From a virus: DNA of 64,000 bases. The translations under genes and the position numbers were made by a program. Numbering within the stretch: the stretch's first letter is position 1; the number at the start of each line of letters is the position of its first letter. Below, one piece after another: positions 45,010 to 61,143 of this stretch. The notes beneath the pieces were generated by a model. It worked only from the letters and a program-made list of their open reading frames with translations. It was not told the DNA's origin and ran no database searches. The stretch is from the IMG/VR virus record IMGVR_UViG_3300042731_005302, one strand, 5' to 3'.

Positions 45010-45025
45010 GTGTGACATGTTACAC
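45010..45025 (+). promoter_or_regulatory. dyad motif M1 (degenerate GTGTGA-CATG-TTACAC)
   Basis: 88 nt upstream of ATG 45113. The change in the left arm is G:T-compatible. Confidence 0.5.
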
Positions 45026-45112
45026 CCAACAGCATACCTGAACAGGTAGGCAAACAACCGGTGGAACATAGCGGCATGTTCCACGTGAAACAAGTTGTAG
45101 GAGATTACTTTC

Positions 45113-45736
45113 ATGACTAAGAAACAGCGCACCTTCGAGCAAGCCATTTCCGATTTGAATAGCGCCATCAATGGCCATCGCAGGGGAGCGAAAATCCCGG
45201 AGCGTATCCGGGAATGCTTTTCCCTGTCTGCCGATAACGCTTCCTTTGTGGAAGCGTTTGGAGCGCTCATTGAGAAACAGTTCCGGGGCACAAAGGGAAC
45301 CGATCCGACGCGGGCCGCCTTACGTATGGCGCTCAAACGTGAGCGGGATGGAAACGGATATCAGCGAGATGGAGACCCGCAGCGCTGGAATATCAGCGTA
45401 GAATTCGATAAGAAAGGTAGTCCCAGCGTAGGGGTTACCATGCACAAAACCGCAGAGCCGGAACCGGAACAGGACGAAAACACGATCGAACCAGCCGCCT
45501 CCAATCCTGCCACTGCTGGAGCGGAAAGGGCCAGCGTGACGGAACTGGAGAAGGGAATCAAAAGCATGTCTGCCCCAGAGCTTTTGCAAGTGAGCCGAGA
45601 TCTGATTCACGCTATCGAGTCCATGGACGATTCAACCGAAGCGTTGAAGCTCATCCATGCCATCCGCAACAGTCTGACAGCTGCCGCTAAGACTGTTCGG
45701 GAACGTGCTTCCATGGTCGAAGCCAAAGCGGCGTAG
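45113..45736 (+). CDS. hypothetical early protein
   Basis: GTAGGAGA SD upstream. 207 aa. First rightward gene after the divergent control region. Confidence 0.6.
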   Translation: MTKKQRTFEQAISDLNSAINGHRRGAKIPERIRECFSLSADNASFVEAFGALIEKQFRGTKGTDPTRAALRMALKRERDGNGYQRDGDPQRWNISVEFDKKGSPSVGVTMHKTAEPEPEQDENTIEPAASNPATAGAERASVTELEKGIKSMSAPELLQVSRDLIHAIESMDDSTEALKLIHAIRNSLTAAAKTVRERASMVEAKAA

Positions 45737-45742
45737 CCCAAT

Positions 45743-45772
45743 GGGGCAGTACATCCTAGGATGTACTGCCCC
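45743..45772 (+). terminator. 30-bp perfect palindrome / strong hairpin after the first early gene
   Basis: ggggcagtacatcc-ta-ggatgtactgcccc. The T-tract is weak (aatctgtttg). Confidence 0.5.
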
Positions 45773-46012
45773 AATCTGTTTGCGATTAATCGTAAGCTGA
45801 TTAATCGTTTTGAGTGTACGCCTATGCGCGCACGCCTTGTGTGCGCTCACGTCAGCGTTTTGCGTACACTCCCTGGGGTTTTCGTAATCCCCAAACTGCT
45901 GGAGTCCGCCAGGGAAAACCGCCCATGGATTCCGATAGATTTAATTTATAGGGACTCTCACAAGTCTCTATAAATTAGATTTATAGCTGACCATTGTTGT
46001 GTCAGCGAGTAC

Positions 46013-46028
46013 GTGTAATAAGTTACAC
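46013..46028 (+). promoter_or_regulatory. dyad motif M2 (GTGTAA-TAAG-TTACAC)
   Basis: Flanked by complementary C...G. No ORF with an SD lies within the next 350 nt. Confidence 0.7.
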
Positions 46029-46384
46029 GTGCAGCTCTTTTACAATTCAGACAGCCAATGTCACGGGGACATGCCGCGCCGGCTGCTACCAAGCAGAATC
46101 CGGTACTGGGCACAGTACCCGTGAAACGCTACAGGAATCGAGTGAGAAGCGCGGCAGCATAGAAGCGTACCGACACTATACGGGACAGAACCCCGTAGAG
46201 ACTGGGCAGACAAGGGGCAATAACAACCTCAATCTGGACTGTTCACCCTGCGGTACGATGGGATCTAAGATCCGCAGCCACTTACCTGGAATGTACTTCC
46301 CTCCTCCCGTCGATGCTTATGGGAGTGCAAAGCTACAGACCAGATCGGCTTGACAGCTGCAACCGTCCACGGTTCCTGGCTCAT

Positions 46385-46400
46385 GTGTAAGAAGTTACAC
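46385..46400 (+). promoter_or_regulatory. dyad motif M3 (GTGTAA-GAAG-TTACAC)
   Basis: Lies inside the ORF-poor stretch. Confidence 0.7.
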
Positions 46401-46521
46401 CTTCTTACCCTGGACGAGCGAACTTGAGCGAATACGTCAAACACCTCAGACGTGCAATGTAGCTATCAGCGCACAGACGAGAGTCTACAACCCCAGATAC
46501 TCCCACGTAGGAGATCAACCA

Positions 46522-46569
46522 AGACCGTCTCGCAAGCTTGCGACGTTATGCTGTGGTCTGATTTGTTTG
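46522..46569 (+). terminator. terminator-like hairpin
   Basis: Outer stem agacc...ggtct encloses the perfect palindrome tcgcaagcttgcga. Followed by gatttgtttg. Confidence 0.45.
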
Positions 46570-46581
46570 ACACAATCTTTC

Positions 46582-46612
46582 TGCTCTTACCTATTCTATA
46601 TAGGTGAGAGCA
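46582..46612 (+). other. 12-bp stem hairpin
   Basis: tgctcttaccta-ttctata-taggtgagagca, with one G:T pair. Confidence 0.45.
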
Positions 46613-46628
46613 CTTTCTTGAGTTAGAG

Positions 46629-46644
46629 GTGTAATTTGTTACAC
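46629..46644 (+). promoter_or_regulatory. dyad motif M4 (GTGTAA-TTTG-TTACAC)
   Basis: 61 nt upstream of ATG 46705. Bracketed by the inverted repeat agcactttct / agaaagtgct. Confidence 0.7.
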
Positions 46645-46704
46645 GTTATGCCGTTAATTCAGAGAAAGTGCTTTCTTAACGTCAAACTAATGGGAGTTAA
46701 TGAT

Positions 46705-46944
46705 ATGTTTTCTTACGCTTATTTCGTTGAAGCCTGCCAGAAACTAGTAGAGAAAACCACAGTACGTAATTTTTGGGCATTGCTGCACGCCTACCGGAAA
46801 CTGCTGGAAGCTGGCCTGCACGCCAGTGAGAGTTTCGACAGAGCCGTCATGGCGGCCTACCACCGAGAGGGATGGGATTCTTACCATACCCGGGTCATGG
46901 CAGAGGAAGCGGAGCGCTGGCTTCGCGTCAACGGCTACAACTAG
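46705..46944 (+). CDS. hypothetical protein
   Basis: GGGAG SD 8 nt upstream. 79 aa. Followed by a terminator. Confidence 0.5.
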   Translation: MFSYAYFVEACQKLVEKTTVRNFWALLHAYRKLLEAGLHASESFDRAVMAAYHREGWDSYHTRVMAEEAERWLRVNGYN

Positions 46945-46967
46945 CCGTTGCCATAATTTCACCTATA

Positions 46968-46997
46968 CAAAGGCCGCGAAAATCGGCCTTTGTTTTT
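46968..46997 (+). terminator. rho-independent terminator
   Basis: caaaggccg-cgaaaat-cggcctttg followed by ttttt. Confidence 0.75.
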
Positions 46998-47111
46998 CTA
47001 AACACCTAGTAGTCAAAGCTCAGCCGGCCCGCGCCGGTACTGAGCCGGATTGAAACCAACTGCCGACGCGCGGGATCGGCTGGAGCGCCTGGTTAGGCGC
47101 GGGAGGAAAGA

Positions 47112-47321
47112 ATGAAGGTTGTACATAAAAGCAAGTCTTGCAGAATAATAGTGAAGAAAAACGGAAGATTTTATCTTCAGTGGAGACCCTTTTGGTGGGT
47201 CTTCTGGTGGGAGACATACTCTGACCCTTGGGGGAAATATGTGTATGAAAAAGAAGAAGACGCGCTTATTGATTATGAGCGCCTCAGGGACGAAGGACCG
47301 GCCGGACTGGCAATGCTGTAG
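47112..47321 (+). CDS. hypothetical Trp-rich protein
   Basis: GGGAGGAAAG SD upstream. 69 aa. Confidence 0.5.
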   Translation: MKVVHKSKSCRIIVKKNGRFYLQWRPFWWVFWWETYSDPWGKYVYEKEEDALIDYERLRDEGPAGLAML

Positions 47322-47397
47322 GAGCGCCTAACGATTGCGCTCAGCCGGCCCGCGCCGGCACCGAGCCAGAGATCAAAACCAAACGCCAATTAGTTAG

Positions 47398-47413
47398 GTG
47401 TAATTTGTTACAC
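47398..47413 (+). promoter_or_regulatory. dyad motif M5 (GTGTAA-TTTG-TTACAC; arms extend to TTAGGTGTAA)
   Basis: 32 nt upstream of ATG 47445. Confidence 0.7.
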
Positions 47414-47444
47414 CTAATTACAACAACCCGTAGGAGATCAAAAG

Positions 47445-47645
47445 ATGAACTTATTAGCCTATGCAAAACAACACAATATTTCAGAAGAAATCCTGGATGA
47501 TTTCGTCCACGATGTAGCCAGCGATATGGCCACTGCCACCAACAACGGTGGCCTGTCTGAGCAGATCCAATTTCTTACCACTACGGTAGGAGAAGAGCAA
47601 ACAAAAAGCATCCTCCAGGCTATTGTCAAGGCCGAAGCATCTTAA
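47445..47645 (+). CDS. hypothetical acidic protein
   Basis: GTAGGAGA SD upstream. 66 aa. Confidence 0.55.
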   Translation: MNLLAYAKQHNISEEILDDFVHDVASDMATATNNGGLSEQIQFLTTTVGEEQTKSILQAIVKAEAS

Positions 47646-47649
47646 TAGG

Positions 47650-47665
47650 GTGTAATTTGTTACAC
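47650..47665 (+). promoter_or_regulatory. dyad motif M6 (GTGTAA-TTTG-TTACAC)
   Basis: Starts 5 nt after stop 47645. 151 nt upstream of ATG 47816. Confidence 0.7.
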
Positions 47666-47815
47666 CTAGCCAAATCGCAGCGTCATGTTGGCGCTCATAG
47701 AGCGCTCCAGCCTCAGGGCCTTAGTCACCGGCAACGAGGCGGTTATAGAGGCTGCAGCGCAGCAGTTGCCAGCCTCTGAGTACAACAAACTCGTAAGACA
47801 CATGAGGAGATTCCA

Positions 47816-48139
47816 ATGATCACGGGCACCGTTATCCACGGCACGATGAGGCCGCAGGATCTGATTCCTGCGTTCCTAGTGGTGCTTCACGAGATGGCAA
47901 AGGAAGATCCCACCGCCTCTGCGGTTGAAGAGCAGTGCGCTGGGTATCCCCTCGGCTTTGTACCCTCCTACGCCATGGAGGACGAGGACTCGGAATGGTG
48001 GTATTCCGAAGAGGCAAACAGCAGACTGGAGGAGTTGTTCTATATTCTCCACAATCTGGCCCCGGAGGGTTACTACTTCGGCTCCCATCCAGGCGACGGG
48101 TCAGACTATGGTTTCTGGGAAATCGAGGAGGAATTATGA
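47816..48139 (+). CDS. hypothetical acidic protein
   Basis: GAGGAGA SD upstream. 107 aa. Confidence 0.6.
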   Translation: MITGTVIHGTMRPQDLIPAFLVVLHEMAKEDPTASAVEEQCAGYPLGFVPSYAMEDEDSEWWYSEEANSRLEELFYILHNLAPEGYYFGSHPGDGSDYGFWEIEEEL

Positions 48140-48357
48140 CCCTGACTCTCTACATGAAGTCCGGCAACAAAATAGTCCTGAAAGGAATAAAGGACTACAA
48201 ATACGGATACAAGGGAAACGAGATTATCAGCCTGACAATCGAGAGGCAAAAGTGGGCGCAAATCGCCAGCAAGTTCTTTGGGACAGAAGTACTTCCCGTA
48301 GGCTCTACGGACTTGTCACAGATTGAGGCCCTAACAGTTAGGAGGATATTCTCATGA
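48136..48357 (+). CDS. hypothetical protein
   Basis: ATGA overlap with the upstream gene. GAGGAGGA SD upstream. 73 aa. Confidence 0.5.
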   Translation: MTLTLYMKSGNKIVLKGIKDYKYGYKGNEIISLTIERQKWAQIASKFFGTEVLPVGSTDLSQIEALTVRRIFS

Positions 48358-48596
48358 AACTCCCTAGCGTGAAAGACCTGGCTCCGCTCACCACAAAGGC
48401 GGGACTCGCAGAGAAGCTTTATCCGAGCGTAATCTATGATACGGCGCTCCCGCAGGGTTGGGTTGATATCTGTATGGCCAATGGCTTCGACCCACGACCC
48501 TGTGTCATTTGGGGCTACCTAGCAGGGAACGTCTTTGGCAAGCCCCTGCCCCTTACAGCAGAGGCAGAAGAGTTCCTACGTATAATGTATCCGTGA
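48354..48596 (+). CDS. hypothetical protein
   Basis: ATGA overlap with the upstream gene. AGGAGGA SD upstream. 80 aa. Confidence 0.5.
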   Translation: MKLPSVKDLAPLTTKAGLAEKLYPSVIYDTALPQGWVDICMANGFDPRPCVIWGYLAGNVFGKPLPLTAEAEEFLRIMYP

Positions 48597-48613
48597 TTAT
48601 ACGTTTGTTTGTT

Positions 48614-48660
48614 AAAAGCTGTTAGTCGAAACAAACCTTTGGCTAACAGCTTTTGTTGTT
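48614..48660 (+). terminator. rho-independent terminator ending the early operon
   Basis: aaaagctgttag...ctaacagctttt forms a 12-bp stem, followed by gttgtttgtt. Confidence 0.65.
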
Positions 48661-49420
48661 TGTTCGTACTCTTCCACAAAGGCCGCAACTTTACCACAGA
48701 AGCCAGCTTCCCGCAGGGTTGGGCAATTTTTACTTGTTTTTATATTTTAGAATAAGTAACTATATTATATCTTGTCTATATATTTGGGTATAGGGCAAGA
48801 CAGGGGTCAAATTTTTTTTCGACAAAATGTTATTAAAAAAAAATGAACTTTTTTTGATTTCTAAGGAAAGCTTAAACTGCGTATCGCAAAGTTAATATTA
48901 AATTACAAAACTATACCGATAATCAAAAAAAATTCTTTATTTTTTAATTTTCAAGTTGACACCTAAACGTTCCTAAAATCCATATCGTTTCCACGCAAAG
49001 CACTTTTTCAGTCATCTCATTCCTTTTTGGCCGAAATTCCTTACGGGTTTCAGTAACTTGGGTAATCAGCAAAAAAACCTGAAGGACGGATTCGTGATAA
49101 ATTATGACGTACCTCGCCGGGATTAACCTTCACAAATCCTGAATAGAGGGGTCTACTCCGAAAAAACTTTGACTACGACTTAAATTACATTAAAGACGAT
49201 CTATGTTATGGATCTTTTTAAACGAATTATGTCTTTTTTTGATTTAAATCCTAAGTTGCAGGAAAACACTTTTTTTCTAAGTCATTATTGCGAAACTAAC
49301 CTCCAGATAAGTTTTCAACTTCTATAATCTTACTTACACTACCGAGCAGCGATTTACTTGCACTTGTACGCCACTTGCATTACTCTGTAATCTCTCATTT
49401 TCTCCTTAGGAGTTCGTAAG

Positions 49421-50653
49421 ATGCCGTATAAGTCAGAGGTCTTCACGCATGTAACTCGCATGGCCGATACTTTGATGGTCGGCAGGTCCACCTTCCATCC
49501 CATTCCTGCTAAGGTTCGCAATCCCGGCGAAGTCTTAACCATGTTGCGCTACGACTCCCACCCCGATGACTCCCGCCTAGGCGACCTGATGGGTTCTGGC
49601 CTGCTGGAACAGCTTCAAAGAAAAAACTTAGGGGACGGTACAGCCAAGGTGGATTTTCTCTGCTGCTGCGGCTCTAGGCATTCCCTGACCCTACAGACAT
49701 TAAGGCGGCGTCTCATCAGTGGCCGTAGTTTCTACCTGCCCCCTCTGTCAAGCCACGAAGGCGGAGACAAGGATAAAATGCCCTACAACGAGGAGGAGGC
49801 CAGGGTAACAGACCTACAGCCCTTTTTCAGCCTGCAGTCAAAGAATGAGTCTTATCCTTTCGTCTGCCCTCACATACAGAACATCTTAAAGGAGGCGTAC
49901 CCTGCCGCCTTCAGTGTCTGGAGCAATCTAAGGGGCAGTGTTGTGAAGGCAGTACAGGCCGCTCAGAACCCTGTAGTTCAGTGGCGTTGGTTTCGCAGGG
50001 ACCTAGGCTTCTTTTTCTTCCTGCAAGATGTCGGACTCCCCGACCACGAACATCAAATACTAAGCAGAAAAGTACAGCGGGGAATCTTCGTAAAAGAGCA
50101 GTTCACTTGGGTGGAGCCCGGACAAGCCCCCCTAAAGCGGGCATATAACCTGCATACAGGTCTCCCTGCCAGGGCACAGGCCAATCTCATGCAACGGTTT
50201 AGATCCCTCCACCATCGAGCCCGGACTAACAACTACGACCTTCATTTCACAGATGTGGAACAATTCATACAGGCCTTGCAGCCTCTGCCGAAAGGCTTCA
50301 ACGACGACCCTAGGAAGTGGAGAATTCACTTCTCAGAGCCCACCCGAAGGGGGTATGGGCCTGACAACTTCGAGTGGAGGCAAAATGAAGCCTATACCCA
50401 AGAGTACGGCACCTCGATAGCCCCGGAGCGGGTAAAGCCGGTCACCAACTGCACCCAACTGCACGACATGTTGAGGCCGGAGTCCCCTGAGGACTTTCTG
50501 AATAAGTTAGCTCTGCTATTCCGGCAACTGGACACCCTGAACTCTAGTGATCTTCTCTGCCCTGAGCCGGCATGGGTGAGCACTGAGGTGGGAATAAGAC
50601 CGGACGTGATGGAGACTATCATAAAGAAGGTGCAGGAGGCGGAACCAGAATAG
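49421..50653 (+). CDS. hypothetical 410-aa protein, first gene after the AT-rich gap
   Basis: TTAGGAG SD upstream. I recognise no motifs by eye. Confidence 0.7.
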   Translation: MPYKSEVFTHVTRMADTLMVGRSTFHPIPAKVRNPGEVLTMLRYDSHPDDSRLGDLMGSGLLEQLQRKNLGDGTAKVDFLCCCGSRHSLTLQTLRRRLISGRSFYLPPLSSHEGGDKDKMPYNEEEARVTDLQPFFSLQSKNESYPFVCPHIQNILKEAYPAAFSVWSNLRGSVVKAVQAAQNPVVQWRWFRRDLGFFFFLQDVGLPDHEHQILSRKVQRGIFVKEQFTWVEPGQAPLKRAYNLHTGLPARAQANLMQRFRSLHHRARTNNYDLHFTDVEQFIQALQPLPKGFNDDPRKWRIHFSEPTRRGYGPDNFEWRQNEAYTQEYGTSIAPERVKPVTNCTQLHDMLRPESPEDFLNKLALLFRQLDTLNSSDLLCPEPAWVSTEVGIRPDVMETIIKKVQEAEPE

Positions 50654-50669
50654 GTGTAACAAGTTACAC
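50654..50669 (+). promoter_or_regulatory. dyad motif M7 (GTGTAA-CAAG-TTACAC; arms extend to TAGGTGTAAC)
   Basis: The upstream stop codon TAG abuts the motif. 41 nt upstream of ATG 50710. Confidence 0.7.
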
Positions 50670-50709
50670 CTACAATCAATCACCCAACCAAGCACAATAG
50701 GAGACCACA

Positions 50710-51348: not shown

Positions 51349-51359
51349 GAGCCAATCCA

Positions 51360-51854
51360 ATGGCAACAGAACACTACCTTCCACCAACATACTTGGAACT
51401 GGAATGGTCCAGCCCACGGTTCCAAGTTAATGGCGGAATTATCAGCCTACTCACTACCTGCACAATCCTCAATCAACTGCCGGCCTGGCTGGAAGAGGAC
51501 ATGCGCACCGTCAATAGGACAGCTTGCCTGTCCTGGGACAGAGGGCTGGGGGAGTACAACCACGTCAGCTTGGAAGAATCTCATGAGTTGCTGCAGAAGA
51601 GAAAGGAAGAAGTCGGGAACGACATGATGAAGCTGTTCAAGCTATTCGTAGAGGCTCACAACGGAACAGTCCTACAGAACTTCGGTGACGGCAGCGATCC
51701 TAAGCTCTGCCAAAGGTTGGACGGGGTGTTTCCACTTCAAGCCGAGGACCTGCGGCAACGAATCAAGGTGGCTGAAGACAACCTGCAATGGCTTCTGGAT
51801 AAACAGAAACAACTGAGGCGGGAGGCGGCTGAGAAGCTGGCTGATGGTCAATAG
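51360..51854 (+). CDS. hypothetical protein
   Basis: ATAGGAG SD upstream. 164 aa. Confidence 0.6.
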   Translation: MATEHYLPPTYLELEWSSPRFQVNGGIISLLTTCTILNQLPAWLEEDMRTVNRTACLSWDRGLGEYNHVSLEESHELLQKRKEEVGNDMMKLFKLFVEAHNGTVLQNFGDGSDPKLCQRLDGVFPLQAEDLRQRIKVAEDNLQWLLDKQKQLRREAAEKLADGQ

Positions 51855-51870
51855 GTGTAACAAGTTACAC
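51855..51870 (+). promoter_or_regulatory. dyad motif M8 (GTGTAA-CAAG-TTACAC)
   Basis: Abuts stop 51852..51854. 22 nt upstream of ATG 51892. The 32-nt block aggtgtaacaagttacaccacaacgtaggagc is identical to the one at 57321. Confidence 0.7.
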
Positions 51871-51891
51871 CACAACGTAGGAGCCCCAACA

Positions 51892-52440: not shown

Positions 52441-52454
52441 TAGGAGGAAGACGG

Positions 52455-53587: not shown

Positions 53588-53717
53588 CCACTTAATCAAA
53601 CCCCTCAGGCTGTGGCCCCGTGACCTGAGGACTCCATCCACAACCTAATAGAGGAGGTACAGGCCAAGCAGAGAAAACCGGACACTACGGGGCACTAACG
53701 TCAATATTGGAGCTACC

Positions 53718-53900
53718 ATGAAAAATACTTATAACAACCGGACCCATAAAGTAAATAAATACAGATGCCCTGTCTGCGGCTGGCAGGGCACTGCTGAGGA
53801 CATGAAACTATCAGAGCCTCAGGTTATAAAGGACGTGGCCGCAGTACTGTATACAAGGGTCTGCCCACGATGTGGGCATGACGAACTTACTAAGGTGTAA
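53718..53900 (+). CDS. small zinc-ribbon protein
   Basis: CPVCG...CPRCG. 60 aa. The stop TAA lies inside motif M9. Confidence 0.5.
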   Translation: MKNTYNNRTHKVNKYRCPVCGWQGTAEDMKLSEPQVIKDVAAVLYTRVCPRCGHDELTKV

Positions 53901-53910
53901 CAAGTTACAC
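53895..53910 (+). promoter_or_regulatory. dyad motif M9 (GTGTAA-CAAG-TTACAC)
   Basis: 26 nt upstream of ATG 53936. Confidence 0.7.
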
Positions 53911-53935
53911 CTACAAACACATAGGAGCAATAACA

Positions 53936-54552: not shown

Positions 54553-54564
54553 GAGCAAAACGCA

Positions 54565-54840
54565 ATGAAACTAAACCCCTATACAGTAGTTCTTGCTTTT
54601 CCTGACTACTTGTATTTTCCTCGTAATGCCTGCTATGCCCGGCACGTAGCGTCCTCTGACCCGGACAAGGCACTGAAACTGGTAAGGATGCTTGCACTTG
54701 AAAACACCAAGGAGTTTCTTGCTACTGAAGGCCCGGACAACAGCCACTTTATCGGCGCTCTAGGCAGTCCCGATGAATTCAAACTGATTGCCGTCTTTGA
54801 AGGCTACTGCACAGTAGTCGAAGACAGCTGCCCCTTCTGA
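54565..54840 (+). CDS. hypothetical protein
   Basis: ATAGGAGC SD upstream. 91 aa. Confidence 0.55.
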   Translation: MKLNPYTVVLAFPDYLYFPRNACYARHVASSDPDKALKLVRMLALENTKEFLATEGPDNSHFIGALGSPDEFKLIAVFEGYCTVVEDSCPF

Positions 54841-54886
54841 TTCCACTGGCCTTAGGCCAAACAGCTACAAGTAGGAGAACCAACAA

Positions 54887-55588
54887 ATGTGTAATCCCCG
54901 CCATGAAGAACACGAATACGAAGGCTACACCATCAAGGTCATCCAAGACATCGACCCGCAGAATCCGAGAAAAGACTTCGACAACCTGGGAGTTATGGTC
55001 TGCGAGCACTCGTGCTATGACTTGGGAGACGGCGGCATGTACCTGCTGCGGGATGCCGTCAGAGCACATCCGTTATGGCATGACTGCTGGGAAGATGATC
55101 TGGAGGAAGACGACAACCAGTGGTGGCTTGCCAAGGCCGAACGGTTCGGCTTCATAATCCTGCCACTGTATCTGTACGACCACAGCGGCATCACCATGAA
55201 CACTACTGGATTTTCCTGTCCATGGGACAGCGGCCGAGTAGGCGTGATCTTCGCTTCTCCTGCCAAGATCAGAGAATGCCACCTCTTGAAGCCCAAGCAA
55301 CGCATCTCAAATAAAATCAAAAAGCTTGTCATTAAAGTTCTCAAGGCAGAGGTGGAAGAGTACGACCAATACCTGACCGGCGATGTCTGGGGCTTTATCA
55401 TCGAAGACTCGGACGGCGAAGAGATCCAGGACGGCTCCTGCTGGGGCTTCTTCGGGCAGGACTACTGCCTGCAAGATGCAAAGGGGGTAGTAGATGCGGA
55501 GATCGAGCGCCGCAAAGAGCAGGCCCTGCTGGATGCTGCCAAGGAACAGGCATCTCAGTTTGTAGAGGCAGAAGACTGTTACGCTTAG
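54887..55588 (+). CDS. conserved phage/plasmid-type hypothetical protein
   Basis: GTAGGAGA SD upstream. 233 aa. Motifs LYLYDHSGI, CPWDSGRVG and YLTGDVWGF. Confidence 0.6.
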   Translation: MCNPRHEEHEYEGYTIKVIQDIDPQNPRKDFDNLGVMVCEHSCYDLGDGGMYLLRDAVRAHPLWHDCWEDDLEEDDNQWWLAKAERFGFIILPLYLYDHSGITMNTTGFSCPWDSGRVGVIFASPAKIRECHLLKPKQRISNKIKKLVIKVLKAEVEEYDQYLTGDVWGFIIEDSDGEEIQDGSCWGFFGQDYCLQDAKGVVDAEIERRKEQALLDAAKEQASQFVEAEDCYA

Positions 55589-55590
55589 AC

Positions 55591-55606
55591 GTGTAACTTG
55601 TTACAC
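55591..55606 (+). promoter_or_regulatory. dyad motif M10 (flipped centre: GTGTAA-CTTG-TTACAC)
   Basis: 26 nt upstream of ATG 55632. The centre is the reverse complement of CAAG. Confidence 0.7.
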
Positions 55607-55631
55607 CTGAAAGAAAGTAGGAGCACCAACA

Positions 55632-57311
55632 ATGATCGACAATCAGTTCTATCCCACCCCTGTAGGCTTAGCACAAAGGGCTTACCATAAATTCACAAGT
55701 CGGGACATCACCCGCCTCCTGGAGCCTGAGGCCGGTAGAGGAGACTTTCTGGACGCTATCGGATGCCGTGACACTTATTATCACGGCAGAACCACTCAAG
55801 CCGACTGCATCGAGCTGGACCTGCAAAATCAGGCCATCCTCAGAGATAAGGGTTACCGAGTGATCGACGGGGATTTCCTGCAGTTCAGCGGCAGCGGAGC
55901 TATGTACTCCCACGTCCTCATGAATCCCCCATTCAATCAGGGAGTGGCTCACGTACTCAAGGCCTGGGACATTTTGTTTGACGGGGAGATCGTAGCCATC
56001 ATCAATGCTGCATCTCTACGAAACCCAGACTCGGGGGCAGCTCGTCGCCTGTTCAGGCTCATTGCTGATCACGGCGAAGTAGAATTCTTGCAGCAACAGT
56101 TTCAGACCGAAGACACCCAGCGCAAGACCAACGTCGAGATTGCCCTTGTACACCTCACGAAGAAGGCCTCTGTAGCTTATAGCAACCCCGCTGAAGGGTT
56201 GAAGGAAGATGCTGGACCTGGGATAGCAGACGAGGTCAACAAACAACAGCTGGCCCTGCCGGAGCCTACTATCCACAGTACCGTTAGAGCCTTCGACTTG
56301 GCAGTCGGGAAGATGAAAGTGGCTGTCATGGCGGAGGACGAAGCCTCTTACTACGAGCGGCTGATCTCCTCTGCCCTGGACCCGTCTACCCAGCCTGTTG
56401 AAGTCAAGCTGAAAAAGGTCCAAGAGGAAATCAACGGCAGGTATGACAAGTTGAAGGGCATGGCCTGGAGCCTTATCCTGCAATCCACAGAGTTCACCCA
56501 GAGACTGTCCTCCAAGGTGCAGAAAAAGTTGGAGTCTGACTTTGAACAGGTACAGAAACTGGAGTTTACTTTCTCCAATATCTACGGCCTGTTGTCTGGG
56601 CTTGTGAACCAAAAAGGTCAGATGGACATGGAGATGGTAGCCGAGGTGTTTGACCTGTTCACACGCTACCACTCCGATAATCGGGCCTACTACAGAGGGT
56701 GGAAGAGCAACGACAAGCACAAGACCTGCGCCTACCGCCTGAAGATGACCAGGTTCATCCTGCCTCTTGGGGGCTATGACTCGTTCCTTGACTACACCAA
56801 GAAACAGGAACTATTCGACATCGACAAGGCGTTTGCCATGCTGGACGGCAAGCCAATTCCTGCTAGAACGGACGACCCTGAGGACGCTGGGTATGAAGCA
56901 TACCGTAATACCTTGTTCTACCTGGCTGATCAGCGGTTCGGAGATCTTAAAACCTCAGAGCGATTCCAGACCACCTACTTCGATGTCAGATACTATCCAG
57001 GGACCGGGACCATGCACTTCTTTCCGAAGCGGAAAGACCTCGTCGATAAGATGAACCGGATTGTCGGCAGGATGCGGGCTTGGCTGCCTCCTGAGGATGA
57101 GCGGGTAGACAAGAAGTTCTGGGTGCAGTATGACAAGGCCGAAAAGGTGACGGCTCAGATGAACAAGACGCCCAAGTACAATTCAACGTGGTTTCGGGTG
57201 AATGAAGAGGAGGCCCTGGCTGTGCTGCATGAGGCGGCCTGTGCCAAGCTCAACATCGATTTGTCAGACGGCCTGTTTCATGAGGCGCACAAGGCGCTGG
57301 GTGTAGATTGA
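55632..57311 (+). CDS. N6-adenine DNA methyltransferase with DUF4942-like C-terminal region
   Basis: FYPTP, LEPEAGRGDF (SAM binding) and NPPF catalytic motif. 559 aa with a long C-terminal extension. Confidence 0.75.
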   Translation: MIDNQFYPTPVGLAQRAYHKFTSRDITRLLEPEAGRGDFLDAIGCRDTYYHGRTTQADCIELDLQNQAILRDKGYRVIDGDFLQFSGSGAMYSHVLMNPPFNQGVAHVLKAWDILFDGEIVAIINAASLRNPDSGAARRLFRLIADHGEVEFLQQQFQTEDTQRKTNVEIALVHLTKKASVAYSNPAEGLKEDAGPGIADEVNKQQLALPEPTIHSTVRAFDLAVGKMKVAVMAEDEASYYERLISSALDPSTQPVEVKLKKVQEEINGRYDKLKGMAWSLILQSTEFTQRLSSKVQKKLESDFEQVQKLEFTFSNIYGLLSGLVNQKGQMDMEMVAEVFDLFTRYHSDNRAYYRGWKSNDKHKTCAYRLKMTRFILPLGGYDSFLDYTKKQELFDIDKAFAMLDGKPIPARTDDPEDAGYEAYRNTLFYLADQRFGDLKTSERFQTTYFDVRYYPGTGTMHFFPKRKDLVDKMNRIVGRMRAWLPPEDERVDKKFWVQYDKAEKVTAQMNKTPKYNSTWFRVNEEEALAVLHEAACAKLNIDLSDGLFHEAHKALGVD

Positions 57312-57322
57312 CTTTTAATTAG

Positions 57323-57338
57323 GTGTAACAAGTTACAC
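57323..57338 (+). promoter_or_regulatory. dyad motif M11 (GTGTAA-CAAG-TTACAC)
   Basis: 22 nt upstream of ATG 57360. Confidence 0.7.
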
Positions 57339-57359
57339 CACAACGTAGGAGCAACGACA

Positions 57360-57902
57360 ATGCCAGAATACAGAATCAAATGGGAGATCGACCTCGATGC
57401 TGACACCCCGAGGAAGGCCGCAGAACTTGCCATGAACTACCTACAGACTGGCAAGGAGTGCCATGTCTTCATTGTCAGGGACAACGCAGAGCCAGACCTG
57501 GGGCAGTATTTTCAGGTAGACCTGGATGCCCCTGTTCCTGGCAGCAACGAATACCTGGAAGAGTTCTTTAAGGCCTATGTAGTCTGCGCCCTGCGGAGTT
57601 CTACAGACGAAGAAGGAACTCCTCTTGATGAGGACTACAGCCAGGCGGACATAGATGCCGGCACTCTGAAGGAAATGAAGTTGGACTGCGATGACTTCAT
57701 TATGTTGGCTAAAGATCCGCTGAGTCGCGCAGATTTACCTGCTTCCACTGCTGGTTACAACTTTTGGCTGACTAGGAACCGGCATGGGGCAGGATTCTGG
57801 GACCTGGGCTTAGGCAAGGTCGGGGAAGAGCTGACCACGTTGGCCCACACCTACGGTTCCGTAGACCTGTACGTTGGAGACGACGACAAGCTTTACAGTT
57901 GA
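57360..57902 (+). CDS. hypothetical protein
   Basis: GTAGGAGC SD upstream. 180 aa. C-terminal motif GYNFWLTRNRHGAGFWD. Confidence 0.6.
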   Translation: MPEYRIKWEIDLDADTPRKAAELAMNYLQTGKECHVFIVRDNAEPDLGQYFQVDLDAPVPGSNEYLEEFFKAYVVCALRSSTDEEGTPLDEDYSQADIDAGTLKEMKLDCDDFIMLAKDPLSRADLPASTAGYNFWLTRNRHGAGFWDLGLGKVGEELTTLAHTYGSVDLYVGDDDKLYS

Positions 57903-57914
57903 CAGGCCCCCACC

Positions 57915-58112
57915 ATGCACAACCGACAAACCCTAAGCCTTAAGAAGCCTTCAACCCGGCCCCACAAACCAAGGGACCAGCAGCCAAGGGACCACAAGAT
58001 AGCCCGTCATACCCTTGTTTGCCTTTACGGTCCGCTGGCCCCTGGCCGGCATGACCGCATGCAGCGGGAGATGAACAACCTAGCCAAGAGGAGGCCCAAA
58101 CACCAGAAATAA
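57915..58112 (+). CDS. doubtful ORF (very basic, no SD)
   Basis: 65 aa, Arg/Lys/Pro-rich. Confidence 0.25.
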   Translation: MHNRQTLSLKKPSTRPHKPRDQQPRDHKIARHTLVCLYGPLAPGRHDRMQREMNNLAKRRPKHQK

Positions 58113-58118
58113 AATAAC

Positions 58119-58147
58119 TTGACCCTGAATATAGAGAAGTCTATACT
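58119..58147 (+). promoter_or_regulatory. sigma70-type promoter TTGACC-N17-TATACT
   Basis: -35 at 58119..58124 and -10 at 58142..58147 with a 17-nt spacer. Confidence 0.5.
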
Positions 58148-58153
58148 ACAACT

Positions 58154-58173
58154 TGTCTACAGTTATGTAGACA
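58154..58173 (+). promoter_or_regulatory. dyad TGTCTACA-GTTA-TGTAGACA at the predicted transcription start
   Basis: 8-bp perfect arms beginning about 7 nt after the -10 element. Confidence 0.45.
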
Positions 58174-58196
58174 CAACTACAAGTAGGAGAGTAATT

Positions 58197-58406
58197 ATGC
58201 GAAATTCAAGTTCTAACAGCTCAGGACCGGGAGTGCTCGGCCTTTTGGGAGTGGCCTTCGTAGTGCTTAAATTAACAGGACACATAGATTGGTCCTGGTG
58301 GTGGGTGACAGCGCCGTTTTGGGGCGGGTTAGTACTGGTGCTGGCAGCATTGGTGGGGTTCTTCCTAATAACCTATGGTAAAAAGGCGTTTAAATCTAGA
58401 AAGTAG
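58197..58406 (+). CDS. small two-TMD membrane protein (holin-like architecture)
   Basis: GTAGGAGAG SD upstream. GVLGLLGVAFVVL and GGLVLVLAALVGFFLI segments with a basic C-terminus. Confidence 0.55.
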   Translation: MRNSSSNSSGPGVLGLLGVAFVVLKLTGHIDWSWWWVTAPFWGGLVLVLAALVGFFLITYGKKAFKSRK

Positions 58407-58473
58407 CCTCACAGGCGCTATGTAGGCGGCTGAAGCACTTCGCCTGCTGTAACAATCAATAGGAGATCAAACA

Positions 58474-58881
58474 ATGTGTAAGACCACTATCGAGTCTTCC
58501 CCCGCAATCCTTGCCCTGCAGAAAAAATGGGCGGAAGCCAAAGCCAACGAGGCCGGCTGGAAAGATATCAAATGGGAATGTGAGAAGAAGATCCTCGAAG
58601 CTCTGAAGGCCGGCGGCATAGAACTGCCTGAGACTGGCAGCCTTTGCCTGGAGAAACTGAACATCACCTTCGGCAACACCCGGAGCTGGGACCAGCCCTC
58701 TCTTACTGAGGTGGCTATCGCCAATCCTCATATGATCGGCTCGGTCCTCATCACCGAATACAAGGTAGCTCTGACCAAGCCCAAGGTGGACAAGCTTGTG
58801 GCGGGCGGCACCGAGGCCGGGCAGGCTATTGCCGAGTGCTTTGAAGACAAGCCGAAGAAGCCTTCCTTCTCGGAGAAATAA
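58474..58881 (+). CDS. hypothetical protein
   Basis: ATAGGAGA SD upstream. 135 aa. Confidence 0.6.
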   Translation: MCKTTIESSPAILALQKKWAEAKANEAGWKDIKWECEKKILEALKAGGIELPETGSLCLEKLNITFGNTRSWDQPSLTEVAIANPHMIGSVLITEYKVALTKPKVDKLVAGGTEAGQAIAECFEDKPKKPSFSEK

Positions 58882-58884
58882 CTT

Positions 58885-59148
58885 ATGAACCCACTAATCG
58901 GCGCAACTCTGCCTGCGTTTGGTAGCTACAAACTGGAGCCTATTTACCTAGCTCCTAAGCTGCAATTGAGCCCCAAAGTTCAGGTGAGCGATGCCTTCAG
59001 AGAGCAGTTCAATACCTACTTGCTTGATAGGTTCGGGTACGTGGAGTCCCCGGTAGAACCTGGAGAATTCCTGGTTTCTGAAGCATTTAGAACCATCATG
59101 GGCAGGCCGGAAGATTTGTCTGTTCTGAAGGCAGTTATTGACAGTTAG
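58885..59148 (+). CDS. hypothetical protein
   Basis: 87-aa ORF in operon context. Confidence 0.5.
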   Translation: MNPLIGATLPAFGSYKLEPIYLAPKLQLSPKVQVSDAFREQFNTYLLDRFGYVESPVEPGEFLVSEAFRTIMGRPEDLSVLKAVIDS

Positions 59149-59158
59149 GAGGTAAGTC

Positions 59159-59536
59159 ATGGGCTACGAAACAAAGCTTCTGATTGGCATAAGTTCTCCC
59201 TTCTCAAAGCAAGCAAGCGACCGCAAAGAAACTTATTTCCAAATCTTTGCTACTTTAGACCTGTGTAAGTGCGGATATCCCTCGAAGCTGCACGAACTTC
59301 CCCGTGTCAATACCGATGAAAACCATTGCTGGTTTTGGTACGGCGGAGACGAGGAACAGCGTGAGAACCTATATGGAGAGCAGCTTAAGCCGGTTCCTGT
59401 GAGGGACGTTTTAGAAGCCTTGAAGGCTGACATGGTGCAGGAGCCAAACTACCGTAGGTTTAAATGGGCTAGGGCTTTACTAGAGTCTATGGTTGACGAC
59501 CAGGAGAACTTGGAAGTTCTGCTGTACGGCCACTGA
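59159..59536 (+). CDS. hypothetical protein
   Basis: TTAGGAGG SD upstream. 125 aa. Confidence 0.6.
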   Translation: MGYETKLLIGISSPFSKQASDRKETYFQIFATLDLCKCGYPSKLHELPRVNTDENHCWFWYGGDEEQRENLYGEQLKPVPVRDVLEALKADMVQEPNYRRFKWARALLESMVDDQENLEVLLYGH

Positions 59537-59689
59537 ATAGCAAGCAAAAAGAAGCCGGCCCATGGGGGTAGGCCGGCTAATAATGTTACACGTAGGAGAT
59601 CGAAGTCCAGCCGTCGAAGAAGGGATAGGAAGAACTTCGAGCGGAACTATATCTCCTGTACGGTTAGAAAGCAATAGGAGAAACCACAA

Positions 59690-60679
59690 GTGAACATCAA
59701 CGAAGCACGAGATGTAATCAATCATATCCTGTCTATCAACCCGGAGCAGAGCATCATGCTTTGGGGTCCTCCAGGGGTGGGCAAGTCGGATCTGATCCGG
59801 CAAATCGCGGCAGAGCAAGGCCTGGAGGTATTGGACCTGAGGCTTAGTCAGATGGACCCCCCTGACCTGCGAGGAATGCCGTTCCCGAAGGACGGAGCGA
59901 CTACCTTCTATCCCCCGGCAGAGTTGCCCACTGCTCCGGGCAAGCTCATCTTCCTTGACGAGATGAACGCAGCCCCTCGGGCAGTTATGGCTGCAGCGAT
60001 GCAGTTAACTCTGGACCGGCAACTGGGCCAGTACAGAGTGCCGGACGGTACTCCCATCATAGCAGCCGGTAATCGGGTGCAGGATAAGGCCGTAGCCAAT
60101 CGGATGCCGTCTGCGCTCAACAATCGGTTCATCCACATCCAGGTCGAAGTGGATCTCACCTGCATGGTCAAGTACATGCTGGAGAACGCCTGGCCGATGG
60201 AGGTTATACAGTTTCTGCGGTTCAGGCCAAACCTGCTGCACAGCATGCCTGACAACCTGCGGGACGGCGAAAGCTTCCCGAGTCCGAGAAGCTGGGAATT
60301 CGTCATCAGGTCCAAGGCTTTGGAAGTAGCGAACAAAGATCTTAGGCGACACCTGCTGGTAGGCGCAGTAGGGGAGGCGGCCATGGTCGAGCTGGAGGGC
60401 TTTATCCGCACGGTCAAGAATCTGCCCAACCTGGACCATGTGCTGACTGATCCGCACAATGCGCCTCTGCCACAACAGACAGACGCCAAGTACGCGGTGG
60501 CCGGGGCCTTGGCTGCTAAGGCAAGCGCAGTCAACCTGGCTTCGATCATGGCCTACCTGGAACGGTTCCAGGAGAAAGAATACATGGCGATGGCTATGCA
60601 CAACATCGTAAAGACCAAGGGCGAGCTTCGCAGTGCTTCCCAGGTCGTCAACTGGATGGCCCAGAATCGGGCTGCTTAG
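59690..60679 (+). CDS. MoxR-type AAA+ ATPase (AAA_5)
   Basis: GTG start after ATAGGAGA. Walker A GPPGVGKS, Walker B LIFLDEMNAA, sensor IIAAGNR. Confidence 0.85.
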   Translation: MNINEARDVINHILSINPEQSIMLWGPPGVGKSDLIRQIAAEQGLEVLDLRLSQMDPPDLRGMPFPKDGATTFYPPAELPTAPGKLIFLDEMNAAPRAVMAAAMQLTLDRQLGQYRVPDGTPIIAAGNRVQDKAVANRMPSALNNRFIHIQVEVDLTCMVKYMLENAWPMEVIQFLRFRPNLLHSMPDNLRDGESFPSPRSWEFVIRSKALEVANKDLRRHLLVGAVGEAAMVELEGFIRTVKNLPNLDHVLTDPHNAPLPQQTDAKYAVAGALAAKASAVNLASIMAYLERFQEKEYMAMAMHNIVKTKGELRSASQVVNWMAQNRAA

Positions 60680-60689
60680 GGGGACAGAG

Positions 60690-61133
60690 ATGAGTAAGAG
60701 AGGTTACGCTTGCATTGGGCTCCATAACCCAAAGACTCCTGCTAATGTCGGAAGTGCCATGCGGGCCTGCGGAGTGTATGGAGCAACACAACTGTTGTTT
60801 ACAGGCTCTAGGTACAAAAAATCACAGAAGTTTGTTACCGATCCGCAAAAACATTATCGACATATTCCTCTTATTCACGTAGAGGACTTACATGTTGCCA
60901 TTCCATTTGATTGCGTGCCTGTGGCTGTAGACCTGATAGAGGGAGCCACTCCTCTGCCGGAGTACAATCACCCTGAGCGGGCCTTCTACATCTTTGGGCC
61001 TGAAGACGGCACCCTGGGGGCAAGAATTACTTCTTGGTGCAGAGATATCGTGTACGTACCTACGGATGGCTGCATGAATTTGGCAGCTACCGTCAATGTA
61101 GTGTTATACGACAGGCTGGCTAAAGGCATGTAA
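60690..61133 (+). CDS. SPOUT (SpoU/TrmH/TrmL-like) RNA 2'-O-methyltransferase
   Basis: IGLHNPKTPANVGSAMRACGVYGA, YIFGPEDGTL and CMNLAATVNVVLYDR match SPOUT motifs 1-3. 147 aa. Confidence 0.7.
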   Translation: MSKRGYACIGLHNPKTPANVGSAMRACGVYGATQLLFTGSRYKKSQKFVTDPQKHYRHIPLIHVEDLHVAIPFDCVPVAVDLIEGATPLPEYNHPERAFYIFGPEDGTLGARITSWCRDIVYVPTDGCMNLAATVNVVLYDRLAKGM

Positions 61134-61143
61134 CAAGTTACAT
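61128..61143 (+). promoter_or_regulatory. dyad motif M12 (compensated variant ATGTAA-CAAG-TTACAT)
   Basis: Overlaps stop TAA 61131..61133. 24 nt upstream of ATG 61167. Confidence 0.65.

Follow-up and report, generated by a model that had tools for sequence, protein, structure and literature searches.

Twelve near-invariant intergenic dyads in the rightward gene block of an uncultured siphovirus-type phage, and the roles they might serve

Why would a phage place one short inverted repeat, over and over, among the genes of a single block? The question is raised by an uncultured tailed phage of the siphovirus type, represented by IMG/VR record IMGVR_UViG_3300042731_005302, of which a stretch of 64,000 nucleotides (hereafter, the window) was analysed. 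The window derives from an 82,741-bp metagenomic contig of the Joint Genome Institute (JGI), and 73.7 kb of sequence was examined for proteins. The element at issue is the dyad GTGTAA-N4-TTACAC, found in twelve copies along the first part of a block of rightward genes. In this report, we conclude that the dyad is a real, highly non-random control signal that is specific to this phage and its lineage. The strand-biased evidence held within the set of copies probably points to a strand-specific role at the level of RNA. Our preferred reading, which we advance tentatively and rate at somewhat under an even chance, is that the dyad is transcribed on the plus strand as a stem-loop, is read by a sequence-specific factor, and punctuates the rightward polycistronic mRNA with consequences for processing, stability or downstream expression.

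The exact pattern (GTGTAANNNNTTACAC) occurs ten times, all copies being reported on the plus strand, against 0.00 expected from 100 dinucleotide-preserving shuffles. Two further copies are variants: that at 45010 reads GTGTGA...TTACAC, a change compatible with G:T pairing, and that at 61128 reads ATGTAA...TTACAT, a symmetric change. These are the same twelve copies, at the same positions, that a first-pass annotation of the window had listed. When up to two mismatches are allowed, 13 sites are found where 1.59 are expected, namely the ten exact copies, the two variants and a site at 35415. A covariance model built from the twelve copies, and run without filters on both strands, recovers exactly those twelve, with scores of 29-40 bits. 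Its next match is 35415 (13.6 bits, E = 0.1), which lies inside a minus-strand open reading frame (ORF) of 823 aa and is treated here as chance. The copies are as follows.

45001..45034, plus strand: leader copy, core 45010-45025 (GTGTGACATGTTACAC), loop CATG; covariance-model score 32.9 bits
46009..46032, plus strand: copy 46013, loop TAAG; 10-bp stem including one T:G, then CTCTTTT; in an ORF-poor structured region
46385..46400, plus strand: copy 46385, loop GAAG; overlaps an alternative 8-bp hairpin at 46387-46408
46629..46644, plus strand: copy 46629, loop TTTG; enclosed by an outer 10-bp stem
47391..47420, plus strand: copy 47398, loop TTTG; 13-bp stem with one G:T; 40.2 bits; 31 nt before ATG 47445
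47649..47666, plus strand: copy 47650, loop TTTG; starts 4 nt past the stop of gene 47445-47645; next gene 150 nt downstream
50651..50672, plus strand: copy 50654, loop CAAG; 9-bp stem; ends 40 nt before ATG 50710
51854..51871, plus strand: copy 51855, loop CAAG; abutted by a stop codon; ends 21 nt before ATG 51892
53893..53912, plus strand: copy 53895, loop CAAG; TAA stop of gene 53718-53900 inside the left arm; 25 nt to ATG 53936
55591..55606, plus strand: copy 55591, loop CTTG; starts 2 nt past a stop; ends 25 nt before an ATG
57322..57339, plus strand: copy 57323, loop CAAG; starts 11 nt past the methyltransferase stop; 21 nt to ATG 57360
61128..61143, plus strand: copy 61128 (ATGTAACAAGTTACAT); 33.1 bits; ends 23 nt before ATG 61167

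All twelve copies are confined to 45.0-61.1 kb, and all twelve are non-coding. Between 49.4 and 61.2 kb just 7.9% of the bases are non-coding, yet the six copies found there all sit in spacers of 33-56 nt. Most copies lie between genes; three (46013, 46385 and 46629) do not, and lie instead in an ORF-poor stretch of about 970 nt (45737-46704). The first-pass description of the block as "early/middle" is accurate as to the rightward direction, but the timing label is an assumption. The dyads occupy just the first 16 kb of a rightward block that is at least 28.6 kb long. None occurs in the 9.7 kb beyond the right end of the window, and their reported absence from 1-13.5 kb and from the leftward virion operon was borne out. 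An unbiased tally of all hairpins with 6-bp arms returned GTGTAA as the sole recurrent hairpin family in about 74 kb, and isolated half-sites occur at about chance frequency.

The family also appears closed to the outside. The motif is absent from 50,697 phage records, and motif scans of IMG/VR, JGI metagenomes and GTDB genomes returned chance singletons only; the earlier statement that the dyad matches no described promoter class stands. The covariance-model scan that had been proposed gave exactly the 12 copies in the window and none in the 9.7 kb beyond it or in the distant relatives. A leader dyad in contig L267 came to light through a homolog search and is taken up below.

The architecture of the copies is strict. 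Their loop measures 4 nt in 12 of 12 cases, and the arms extend to 7-13 bp in most. As the first-pass annotation had it, the loops fall into classes by region: TTTG occurs three times, CAAG five times and the flipped form CTTG once, with one instance each of TAAG, GAAG and CATG. Read from the other strand, the CTTG copy, 55591, has exactly the CAAG form. In every copy the two central bases are A/T, and both orientations are met (AA seven times, TT four times and AT once). Sub-families are apparent, in that copies 51855 and 57323 share 33 identical nt, copies 50654 and 53895 share 24, and the three TTTG copies have about 20 nt in common. From one sub-family to the next the centres and flanks change and the arms do not, which argues for selection on the sequence of the arms, and not for recent duplication alone.

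The changes that the arms do tolerate preserve pairing. All three substitutions among the 144 core positions are of this kind, and they comprise the G:T at pair 5-12 of copy 45010 and the double change at pair 1-16 of copy 61128; these changes, like the extension of the arms, had been noticed before and are confirmed. In copy 61128 the outer pair has gone from G-C to A-T on both sides, the left-arm substitution falls in the final sense codon of the preceding gene and changes it too, and at +2 the pair is G-C, not A-T. Across the set, flanking pair +1 is G-C in six copies and C-G in one, and pair +2 is A-T in seven, G-C in two and G:T in one. On the plus strand five pairs show double changes, a count that 4 of 500 shuffles reach, and 82.5% of the cells pair; on the minus strand the corresponding figures are four pairs, 103 of 500 shuffles and 80.0%.

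Further asymmetries distinguish the two strands and the two halves of the dyad. Among the hairpins of 45.7-47.8 kb, the non-Watson-Crick stem positions on the plus strand are G:T in seven cases and A:C in none. GTTACAC is found 15 times on the plus strand and six times on the minus strand. All 12 copies have G at position 4 of the loop; the base opposite it is C in seven of them and T in four. The C that flanks the right arm is also kept more faithfully than the G that precedes the left arm. Mismatches that are exclusively G:T, a better-kept 3' half and changes that preserve pairing together lean toward a hairpin, although they do not amount to proof. Three readings had been left open by the first-pass annotation; the promoter of the phage N4 type has since fallen away, whereas the operator and the RNA hairpin are both viable, with this modest lean toward the latter.

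The dyads also keep company with a particular translation signal. Seven copies (47398, 50654, 51855, 53895, 55591, 57323 and 61128) have right arms that end 21-40 nt before an ATG, in agreement with the earlier report of seven copies just upstream of starts. In these, the dyad is followed by a G-poor, CA-rich spacer, then by the ribosome-binding site (RBS) RTAGGAG, and then, after 6-9 nt, by the ATG. Contact with the preceding stop codon, likewise reported earlier, is found at 50654, 51855, 53895 and 61128, where the stop abuts or lies inside the left arm, and nearly so at 55591 and 47650, where it lies 2-4 nt upstream. The stem of copy 50654 takes in the TAG stop of the ORFan gene 49421-50653, and the left arm of copy 61128 contains the TAA stop of a SpoU-like gene. 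The remaining five copies (45010, 46013, 46385, 46629 and 47650) have no adjacent start codon. A TAGGAG RBS at 6-9 nt before the start serves about 26 genes of the right block (out to about 74 kb, contig L250), none of 29 virion genes and two of 20 genes of the left block, and the RTAGGAG RBS is present at junctions without a dyad as well. Hairpin, spacer and strong RBS together form a compact, portable expression cassette. As an aside, an RBS specific to one gene class recalls two other systems, namely the start-associated sequences known from Cluster K mycobacteriophages and the GGAG sites in early genes that are targeted by T4 RegB.

How, then, might the dyad act? On the stem-loop reading that we prefer, we infer that the dyads are transcribed within one polycistronic plus-strand mRNA of the rightward block, and that each would fold in vivo into a 6-bp invariant core stem, often extended to 7-13 bp, closed by a 4-nt loop. 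A sequence-specific factor, encoded by the phage or by its host, would then bind the invariant stem and read it, above all in the 3' half, G-UUACAC-C. In this manner the hairpins would mark segment boundaries, at which the mRNA may be processed or stabilised or the expression of the next cistron set. Since five of the 12 copies adjoin no RBS, processing or stability is favoured over translational control alone.

Several observations weigh against this reading. The arms are invariant and it is the loop that varies within the genome; invariant arms are usual for a double-stranded DNA (dsDNA) site bound by a dimer, and most proteins that bind RNA hairpins read the loop. The A/T (WW) centre, present in both orientations, fits two-fold DNA symmetry, and the half-site centres are 10 bp apart. 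Symmetry reaches into the loop (C..G), where pairing would leave a loop of just 2 nt. Most hairpins of the middle block are weak (-5 to -9 kcal/mol), the covariation rests on small counts, and the copies have a common origin. Template switching at quasi-palindromes can likewise produce symmetric double changes, and so can a dimeric protein that co-evolves with its site. For copy 45010 the minus strand gives a more stable fold than the plus strand (-18.8 vs -13.5 kcal/mol). Finally, among the phage proteins examined, none was identified as a candidate RNA-binding protein or nuclease.

On a narrower version of the stem-loop reading, which strikes us as rather unlikely, the dyads would be the RNA targets of a new, phage-specific, stem-reading hairpin-binding protein or endoribonuclease, which would cut or coat the rightward mRNA at cistron boundaries. 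Such a factor can be likened to Cas6 in the processing of CRISPR transcripts and to SLBP on the stem-loops of histone mRNAs. It might be the ORFan family of gp45113 (the product of gene 45113-45736), which co-occurs and co-varies with the leader dyad in two phages.

The window was assigned to a siphovirus-type phage from protein families called in its own proteins. On the minus strand, 13.5-44.3 kb forms the leftward virion operon, with genes for the large terminase, portal, S49 protease, major capsid protein, tail tube protein and a tape-measure protein of 2197 aa, the last identified by PF10145 and many tape-measure PHROGs. The left block (plus strand, 2-12 kb) encodes DNA polymerase A and SbcCD; the ORFan-rich block that runs from 45 kb onward on the plus strand encodes Nmad5, a DUF4942 methyltransferase (gene 55632-57311, immediately downstream of copy 55591), a MoxR-like ATPase and a SpoU methylase. 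The window contains no tRNA and no Rfam family. Family scans, together with precomputed Pfam assignments for contigs L135, L250 and L251, revealed no RNA polymerase family in any protein of the 73.7 kb, nor was a sigma factor or known appropriator found there. Two virion-block proteins of 823 and 707 aa matched no polymerase family or solved structure by sequence. Repressor and integrase families are absent from the scanned proteins, and no lysogeny module was seen.

The phage has no close kin among those available. A megablast search of 17 kb against the 50,697 phage records gave no match, and the best matches of the terminase have at most 31% identity to isolated phages and at most 38% to IMG/VR contigs. 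Both gp45113 and gp49421, which stand at the heads of dyad sub-blocks, are essentially ORFans among 5.8 billion proteins. Short-read contigs of run SRR11712615 are identical to the window, one of them runs 9.7 kb past its right end, and their breaks coincide exactly with dyads. Another break in the assembly from short reads falls at 1-900, where GC-rich tandem repeats (GCCCCCGGCGGCTGTCTCCGAGGCTGCGGC, five to six copies) lie within and upstream of the ORF at 204-815.

The one informative relative concerns the leader copy, which has a conserved control block on its left and the first rightward gene, 45113-45736, on its right.

44913..44996, plus strand: control block upstream of the leader dyad; its nucleotide sequence is conserved in L267

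A full HMMER search gave a single homolog of gp45113, on the 1-kb contig L267; it is 46% identical overall (phmmer), or 48% over the 171 aa aligned by BLASTP, and a search of IMG/VR found no further relatives. The leader of L267 contains a perfect palindrome, CTGTGACATGTCACAG, between the conserved control block and the RBS. Its centre, CATG, is identical to that of copy 45010. The arms depart from the window consensus by two symmetric double changes, G-C to C-G at pair 1-16 and A-T to G-C at pair 5-12, and at the latter pair copy 45010, with its G:T, is an intermediate between the window consensus and L267. Copy 45010 itself has an extended stem of 13-15 bp with one G:T and two A:C positions. 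Since the leader dyad is kept in L267, the leader copy is conserved and is probably the ancestral member of the family; the eleven others look like a lineage-specific expansion. The changes in the L267 arms would fit hairpin covariation, and would equally fit a dimeric protein, perhaps gp45113, that co-evolves with its site.

The surroundings of the leader copy hold two further elements. A sigma54-like -24/-12 element, TGGCCCATGGATTGC, lies at 44946-44960 (plus strand) inside the control block, and its counterpart in L267 is TGGCATACCGATTGC at 214-228 (plus strand). It precedes the leader dyad by about 50 nt, and no other such element of the window is placed like a promoter. The leftward virion operon and the rightward block diverge from a control region that lies between them and contains, at 44410-44545, four direct repeats (TACTACTTAAGATACTAGAAGTGAAATT), each about 35 bp long; these could be iterons or binding sites.

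Palindromes related to the dyad also turned up in unrelated contigs. The L267 palindrome CTGTGACATGTCACAG is over-represented in IMG/VR, with 72 matches (L269, L300 and about 70 other prophage contigs). In L269 (4620-4943) and L300 (2131-2454) it lies inside a conserved 107-aa ORF, where it encodes TCDMSQ, about 0.5-0.6 kb from a CI-like repressor gene; several other groups of contigs carry it in different flanks. Arrays of a perfect palindrome, GTGTAACATGTTACAC, are present in unrelated contigs, both AT-rich (L142, L143, L216, L218, L014 and L209) and GC-rich (L152, L163, L208 and L247), with spacings of about 78-88 nt or of 246 nt. In L142/L218 and L208 these arrays are interleaved with direct ATGTTACACC half-sites, as in iteron or origin regions. 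The proteins of the contigs with GTGTAACATGTTACAC arrays show no homology to those of the window phage.

Foremost among the rivals is a dsDNA operator, an account we regard as possible, if on balance doubtful. A dimeric phage protein would bind a palindrome of 16-20 bp at 12 sites and control the first 16 kb of the rightward block. It could act as a roadblock to elongating RNA polymerase, as at the stoperators of mycobacteriophages, or in some other DNA transaction, and the leader copy would autoregulate the first gene. Much of what was said above against the stem-loop speaks for such a site: the invariant arms, the variable centre that is always WW and occurs in both orientations, conservation over about 20 bp with half-site centres one helical turn apart, a palindrome that extends to the C..G of the centre, and the weakness of the hairpins. 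Further, the leader copies of the window and of L267 are, or nearly are, perfect 16-bp palindromes centred on CATG. The homolog of gp45113 and its co-varying leader dyad fit a cognate pair of protein and site. Unrelated replicons use GTGTAACATGTTACAC together with direct half-sites, so dsDNA readers of the half-site do exist, although no protein of the phage is homologous to those of the iteron-bearing contigs. The 17-bp dyads of Cluster O phages were likewise predicted by their authors to bind a dimeric protein (PMC4351075).

The strand asymmetries argue the other way, since a better-kept right half and mismatches that are all G:T are unexpected in a symmetric dimer site, and the double-change count is both higher on the plus strand and rarer in shuffles there. 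Natural sets of operators are seldom made up entirely of perfect palindromes, and a symmetric double change at a conserved contact, as in copy 61128, would weaken both half-sites and not compensate. No dyad overlaps a recognisable promoter. No binder was found among the proteins examined, either. The candidates for the operator reading are the gp45113 family, found with a leader dyad in two phages, and gp7667, a small MerR/BldC-like protein. Neither gp45113 nor gp49421 has a family assignment, a relative in the Protein Data Bank or, in essence, any homologs, and the single-sequence AlphaFold model of gp45113 (predicted local distance difference test score of 52.7) is unusable. Gene 7667-7885 encodes a 72-aa helix-turn-helix protein of the MerR/BldC/excisionase-like type, and gene 2098-2358 encodes an 86-aa Zn ribbon of the NrdR type that lacks the ATP-cone and matches the N-terminus of TIGR00244 at E = 1e-13, below the cut-off. 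Both products are candidate nucleic-acid-binding proteins, as judged from their sequences.

Known operators of similar appearance were compared with the dyad. Its half-sites are everted relative to NrdR boxes, and the window holds no NrdR boxes. The LexA box of the gamma- and betaproteobacterial type is CTGT-N8-ACAG, whereas the window dyads are GTGT-N8-ACAC; canonical LexA boxes in the window are at chance level (two, vs 1.28 expected), and both are inside genes. The LexA pattern is formally fitted only by the leader dyad of L267, and the excess of that palindrome in IMG/VR is explained by the conserved coding sequence. Operators of the GalR/LacI type have the same GTGTAA-N4-TTACAC geometry but require a central CG, and the window centres are always A/T.

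We consider it improbable that the dyad, or its better-conserved right half GTTACACC, is a phage-specific promoter, whether for an RNA polymerase of the phage or for a host enzyme that a phage factor redirects. Transcripts would begin at the dyad's 3' edge and have leaders of 10-35 nt that carry the RBS, and the earlier remark that any transcript start would have to fall at that edge is geometrically correct. Phages 14-1 and YuA have 9-11 mapped non-sigma70 promoters that need phage factors, and the dyads resemble these in number, spacing and class restriction (PMC10914365). The element is oriented; dyad 46629 alone precedes the next gene after the strong terminator-like hairpin at 46582-46612, from which it is separated by 16 nt; and about 9 kb of the 82.7-kb contig, outside the examined 73.7 kb, could hold a polymerase gene. 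Promoters, however, are not normally palindromic, and the 73.7 kb holds neither an RNA polymerase nor a sigma factor or known appropriator. For a host polymerase, the copies at 21-25 nt are too close to the ATG to fit a -10 element and a transcription start ahead of the RBS, and in most copies the hallmarks of a -10 are missing after the dyad. Shuffles yield more sigma70-like sites than the region itself (14.8 vs 10), and none of the latter is at a dyad. The distance between dyad and RBS rules out an activator site coupled to a sigma70 promoter, and no dyad has a sigma70-like promoter. By eye, neither a sigma70 nor a MotA-like geometry, nor that of a MerR-type site (between -35 and -10) or of a class II activator, fits any copy. 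The spacing of sigma54 does not fit either: by inspection, and measured against TGGCAC-N5-TTGC (GG and GC 12 nt apart), the GG..TTAC of the dyad is one nt too long and has A for G.

It is less probable still that the dyads owe their presence to gene shuffling, as cassette boundaries that supply short homologies where modules are exchanged, duplicated or deleted, whatever their molecular function, in the manner of the stem-loops of T4-type phages. The relevant relatives are contigs L136, L137 and L138, which encode 47-62% homologs of middle-block genes. Their orthologous junctions carry no dyad of the GTGTAA kind or of any recurrent kind, a result that is uninformative at that distance; L136 has a lone GTTACACC between a stop codon and an RBS. 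L136 lacks both the methyltransferase gene, which sits between dyads 55591 and 57323, and the SpoU gene that precedes dyad 61128. Identical 33-nt cassettes stand before the genes for gp57360 and gp51892, whose homologs are neighbours in L137. ORFans abound in the block, and the breaks of the short-read assembly fall exactly at dyads. Shuffling would nonetheless be a consequence of the repeats and not a function. Very few shared genes could be compared, at 37-62% identity, and the homologies are just 16-33 nt long. Invariant arms and variable centres would be left unexplained, and the T4-type stem-loops are defined by a sigma70 promoter that is absent at the dyads.

Very improbable, in our estimation, is that the dyads are plain intrinsic terminators or solitary mimics of CRISPR repeats (RNA anti-CRISPRs of the Racr type). 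In favour of mimicry, the dyads would be short transcribed hairpins with sequence-specific stems, and stems are what Cas6-type proteins read (PMC10651486). To count as a solitary repeat unit, a sequence should match a known CRISPR repeat with identity and coverage of 90% or more; no CRISPR-DR family of Rfam was matched even at E <= 10, and no array on the dyad sequence exists in 185,579 GTDB species genomes. The conserved part, at about 20 nt, is shorter than a repeat, and there are 12 copies, not one. As for termination, which calls for a G+C-rich stem and then a U-tract, the first-pass annotation had noted that no copy is followed by a U-tract, which is correct for 11 of the 12; copy 46013 has a T-rich tail and was scored as terminator-like. 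The stems are weak in any case, with two G-C pairs in a core of six.

Promoters of phage N4 serve a giant virion RNA polymerase and have a 5-7-bp stem and a 3-nt loop, in few copies at the genome end that enters first. That the dyads are such hairpins, extruded from supercoiled DNA for a virion-borne polymerase, as the first-pass annotation had ventured, is scarcely credible: a 6-7-bp stem just upstream of genes is a superficial likeness, whereas the largest ORF is a tape measure, sequence comparison ties the virion-block proteins of 823 and 707 aa to no polymerase family and to no solved structure, no RNA polymerase was detected in the 73.7 kb of this siphovirus-like phage, the loops are of 4 nt, the 12 sites are dispersed over 16 kb and not few at one genome end, and the terminase, about 31% identical to that of any isolated phage, is not N4-like.

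The dyads are not the only structured elements of the rightward block, and three of them share their surroundings with others.

45737..46704, plus strand: ORF-poor stretch of about 970 nt; holds dyads 46013, 46385 and 46629 among other near-perfect hairpins

This stretch contains three mechanical ORFs with codon scores of about 0 and no convincing ORF. The z-score of its RNA minimum free energy is -12.1 on the plus strand vs -9.4 on the minus strand, and its plus-strand stems, which reach 22 bp, have six G:T and no A:C positions. It has no match in Rfam, the best being Yfr20 at E = 0.08. The stretch could be a large structured non-coding RNA or a leader with multiple terminators. Elsewhere in the block, unrelated hairpins occupy the corresponding position in nearly every long spacer without a dyad.

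Three other intergenic features of the block are recorded here. A GC-rich hairpin, CTCAGCCGGCCCGCGCCGG(T/C)AC(T/C)GAGCC, occurs twice, at 47030-47060 and 47340-47370, and so flanks gene 47112-47321. An AT-rich gap of 824 nt (48597-49420), with no ORF of at least 50 aa on either strand, follows a strong terminator at 48613-48655; it ends with a perfect TATAAT at about 49322, then CTTACTTACAC (a dyad half-site), then the ORFan gene 49421-50653. The sole good sigma70-like promoter of the middle block (TTGACC-17-TATACT) is at 58119-58167, and directly after it come a different perfect 7-4-7 dyad, GTCTACAGTTATGTAGAC, and the shared RBS context ACAACTACAAGTAGGAG.

Dispersed, near-invariant dyads and related sites have been described in phages before (in Cluster O, as the extended elements of Cluster K, and as stoperators), and over a decade later most are unexplained. 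The present set is unusually clean, with 12 of 12 copies non-coding, a fixed geometry and a closed family. Its pairing-preserving changes, the bias of wobble pairs toward the plus strand and the better-kept 3' half have no parallel in the description of the Cluster O dyads (PMC4351075). If the stem-loop reading is true, similar phage repeats might need to be re-read as mRNA punctuation and not as operators, and the combination of hairpin and RBS would offer a compact cassette for engineering. The motif also defines a predicted regulon in the otherwise unannotatable, ORFan-rich block of an uncultured phage.

Among known systems, the inter-cistron hairpins of the T7 early region (RNase III sites of about 20 bp or longer) and the repetitive extragenic palindromes (REPs) of enterobacteria give rise to processed ends and to segmental mRNA stability. 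REPs are about 35 nt long, and their spread depends on REP-associated tyrosine transposases (RAYTs). The window dyads are shorter than either, and the examined sequence encodes no such enzyme. The promoter-early stem-loops (PeSLs) of T4-type phages are composites of about 100 bp that join a consensus sigma70 early promoter to a G/C-rich terminator stem (PMC2839356, PMC4122927). Like them, the dyads are a repeated intergenic stem-loop motif in an ORFan-rich region, placed from stop to start and flanking single-gene cassettes; unlike them, they have no promoter, and their stem is A/T-rich and weak. The stoperators of Cluster A, bound by L5 gp71, are asymmetric sites of 13-14 bp for a monomeric immunity repressor of temperate phages, and they act in an orientation-dependent manner (PMC9283540, PMC6550527). 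With these, which block elongation after initiation, the dyads have in common many copies of a short site in short intergenic spacers between co-directional genes. The window site is a dyad, however, and no repressor, integrase or lysogeny module was seen.

The closest parallels are in Clusters K and O. The start-associated sequences (SAS) of Cluster K and their extended form (ESAS) number 11-19 copies per genome, in one orientation and by non-structural genes, and include the extended RBS GGGATAGGAGCCC; about half of the SAS are directly preceded by an inverted repeat, and ESAS arms are of 17 bp, imperfect, and separated by a 4-13-bp spacer (PMC3203893). The function of the ESAS was still unverified in 2025 (PMC12699233). 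The SAS motif, which includes the Shine-Dalgarno (SD) sequence, lies 3-8 nt from starts, and the extended RBS RTAGGAG(C/A) of the window, confined as it is to non-structural genes, is analogous to it but not homologous. The Cluster K 13-mer GGGATAGGAGCCC itself is absent, and nothing similar was found beyond the SD core. In contrast to the ESAS, the window arms are of 6-10 bp and invariant around a fixed 4-nt centre, five of the 12 copies are without a start codon, and the phage, and presumably its host, are unrelated. Cluster O has about 34 copies of a 17-bp dyad, TGTTCGG-N3-CCGAACA, whose arms do not vary and whose A/T-rich centre (TTT/AAA) is found in either orientation; the copies are concentrated among the non-structural genes of an apparently lytic siphovirus, have no association with promoters, and are unexplained in function (PMC4351075). 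The window dyads resemble these in their many copies, invariant arms, variable A/T centre and lack of promoter association. They differ in geometry (6-4-6, as against 7-3-7) and in sequence, about a third of the Cluster O sites are inside genes, and no strand asymmetry or wobble has been reported for Cluster O. We therefore file the dyad under a class that is already known and as yet unexplained, the dispersed intergenic dyads of phage non-structural blocks, as an element homologous to neither those of Cluster K nor those of Cluster O.

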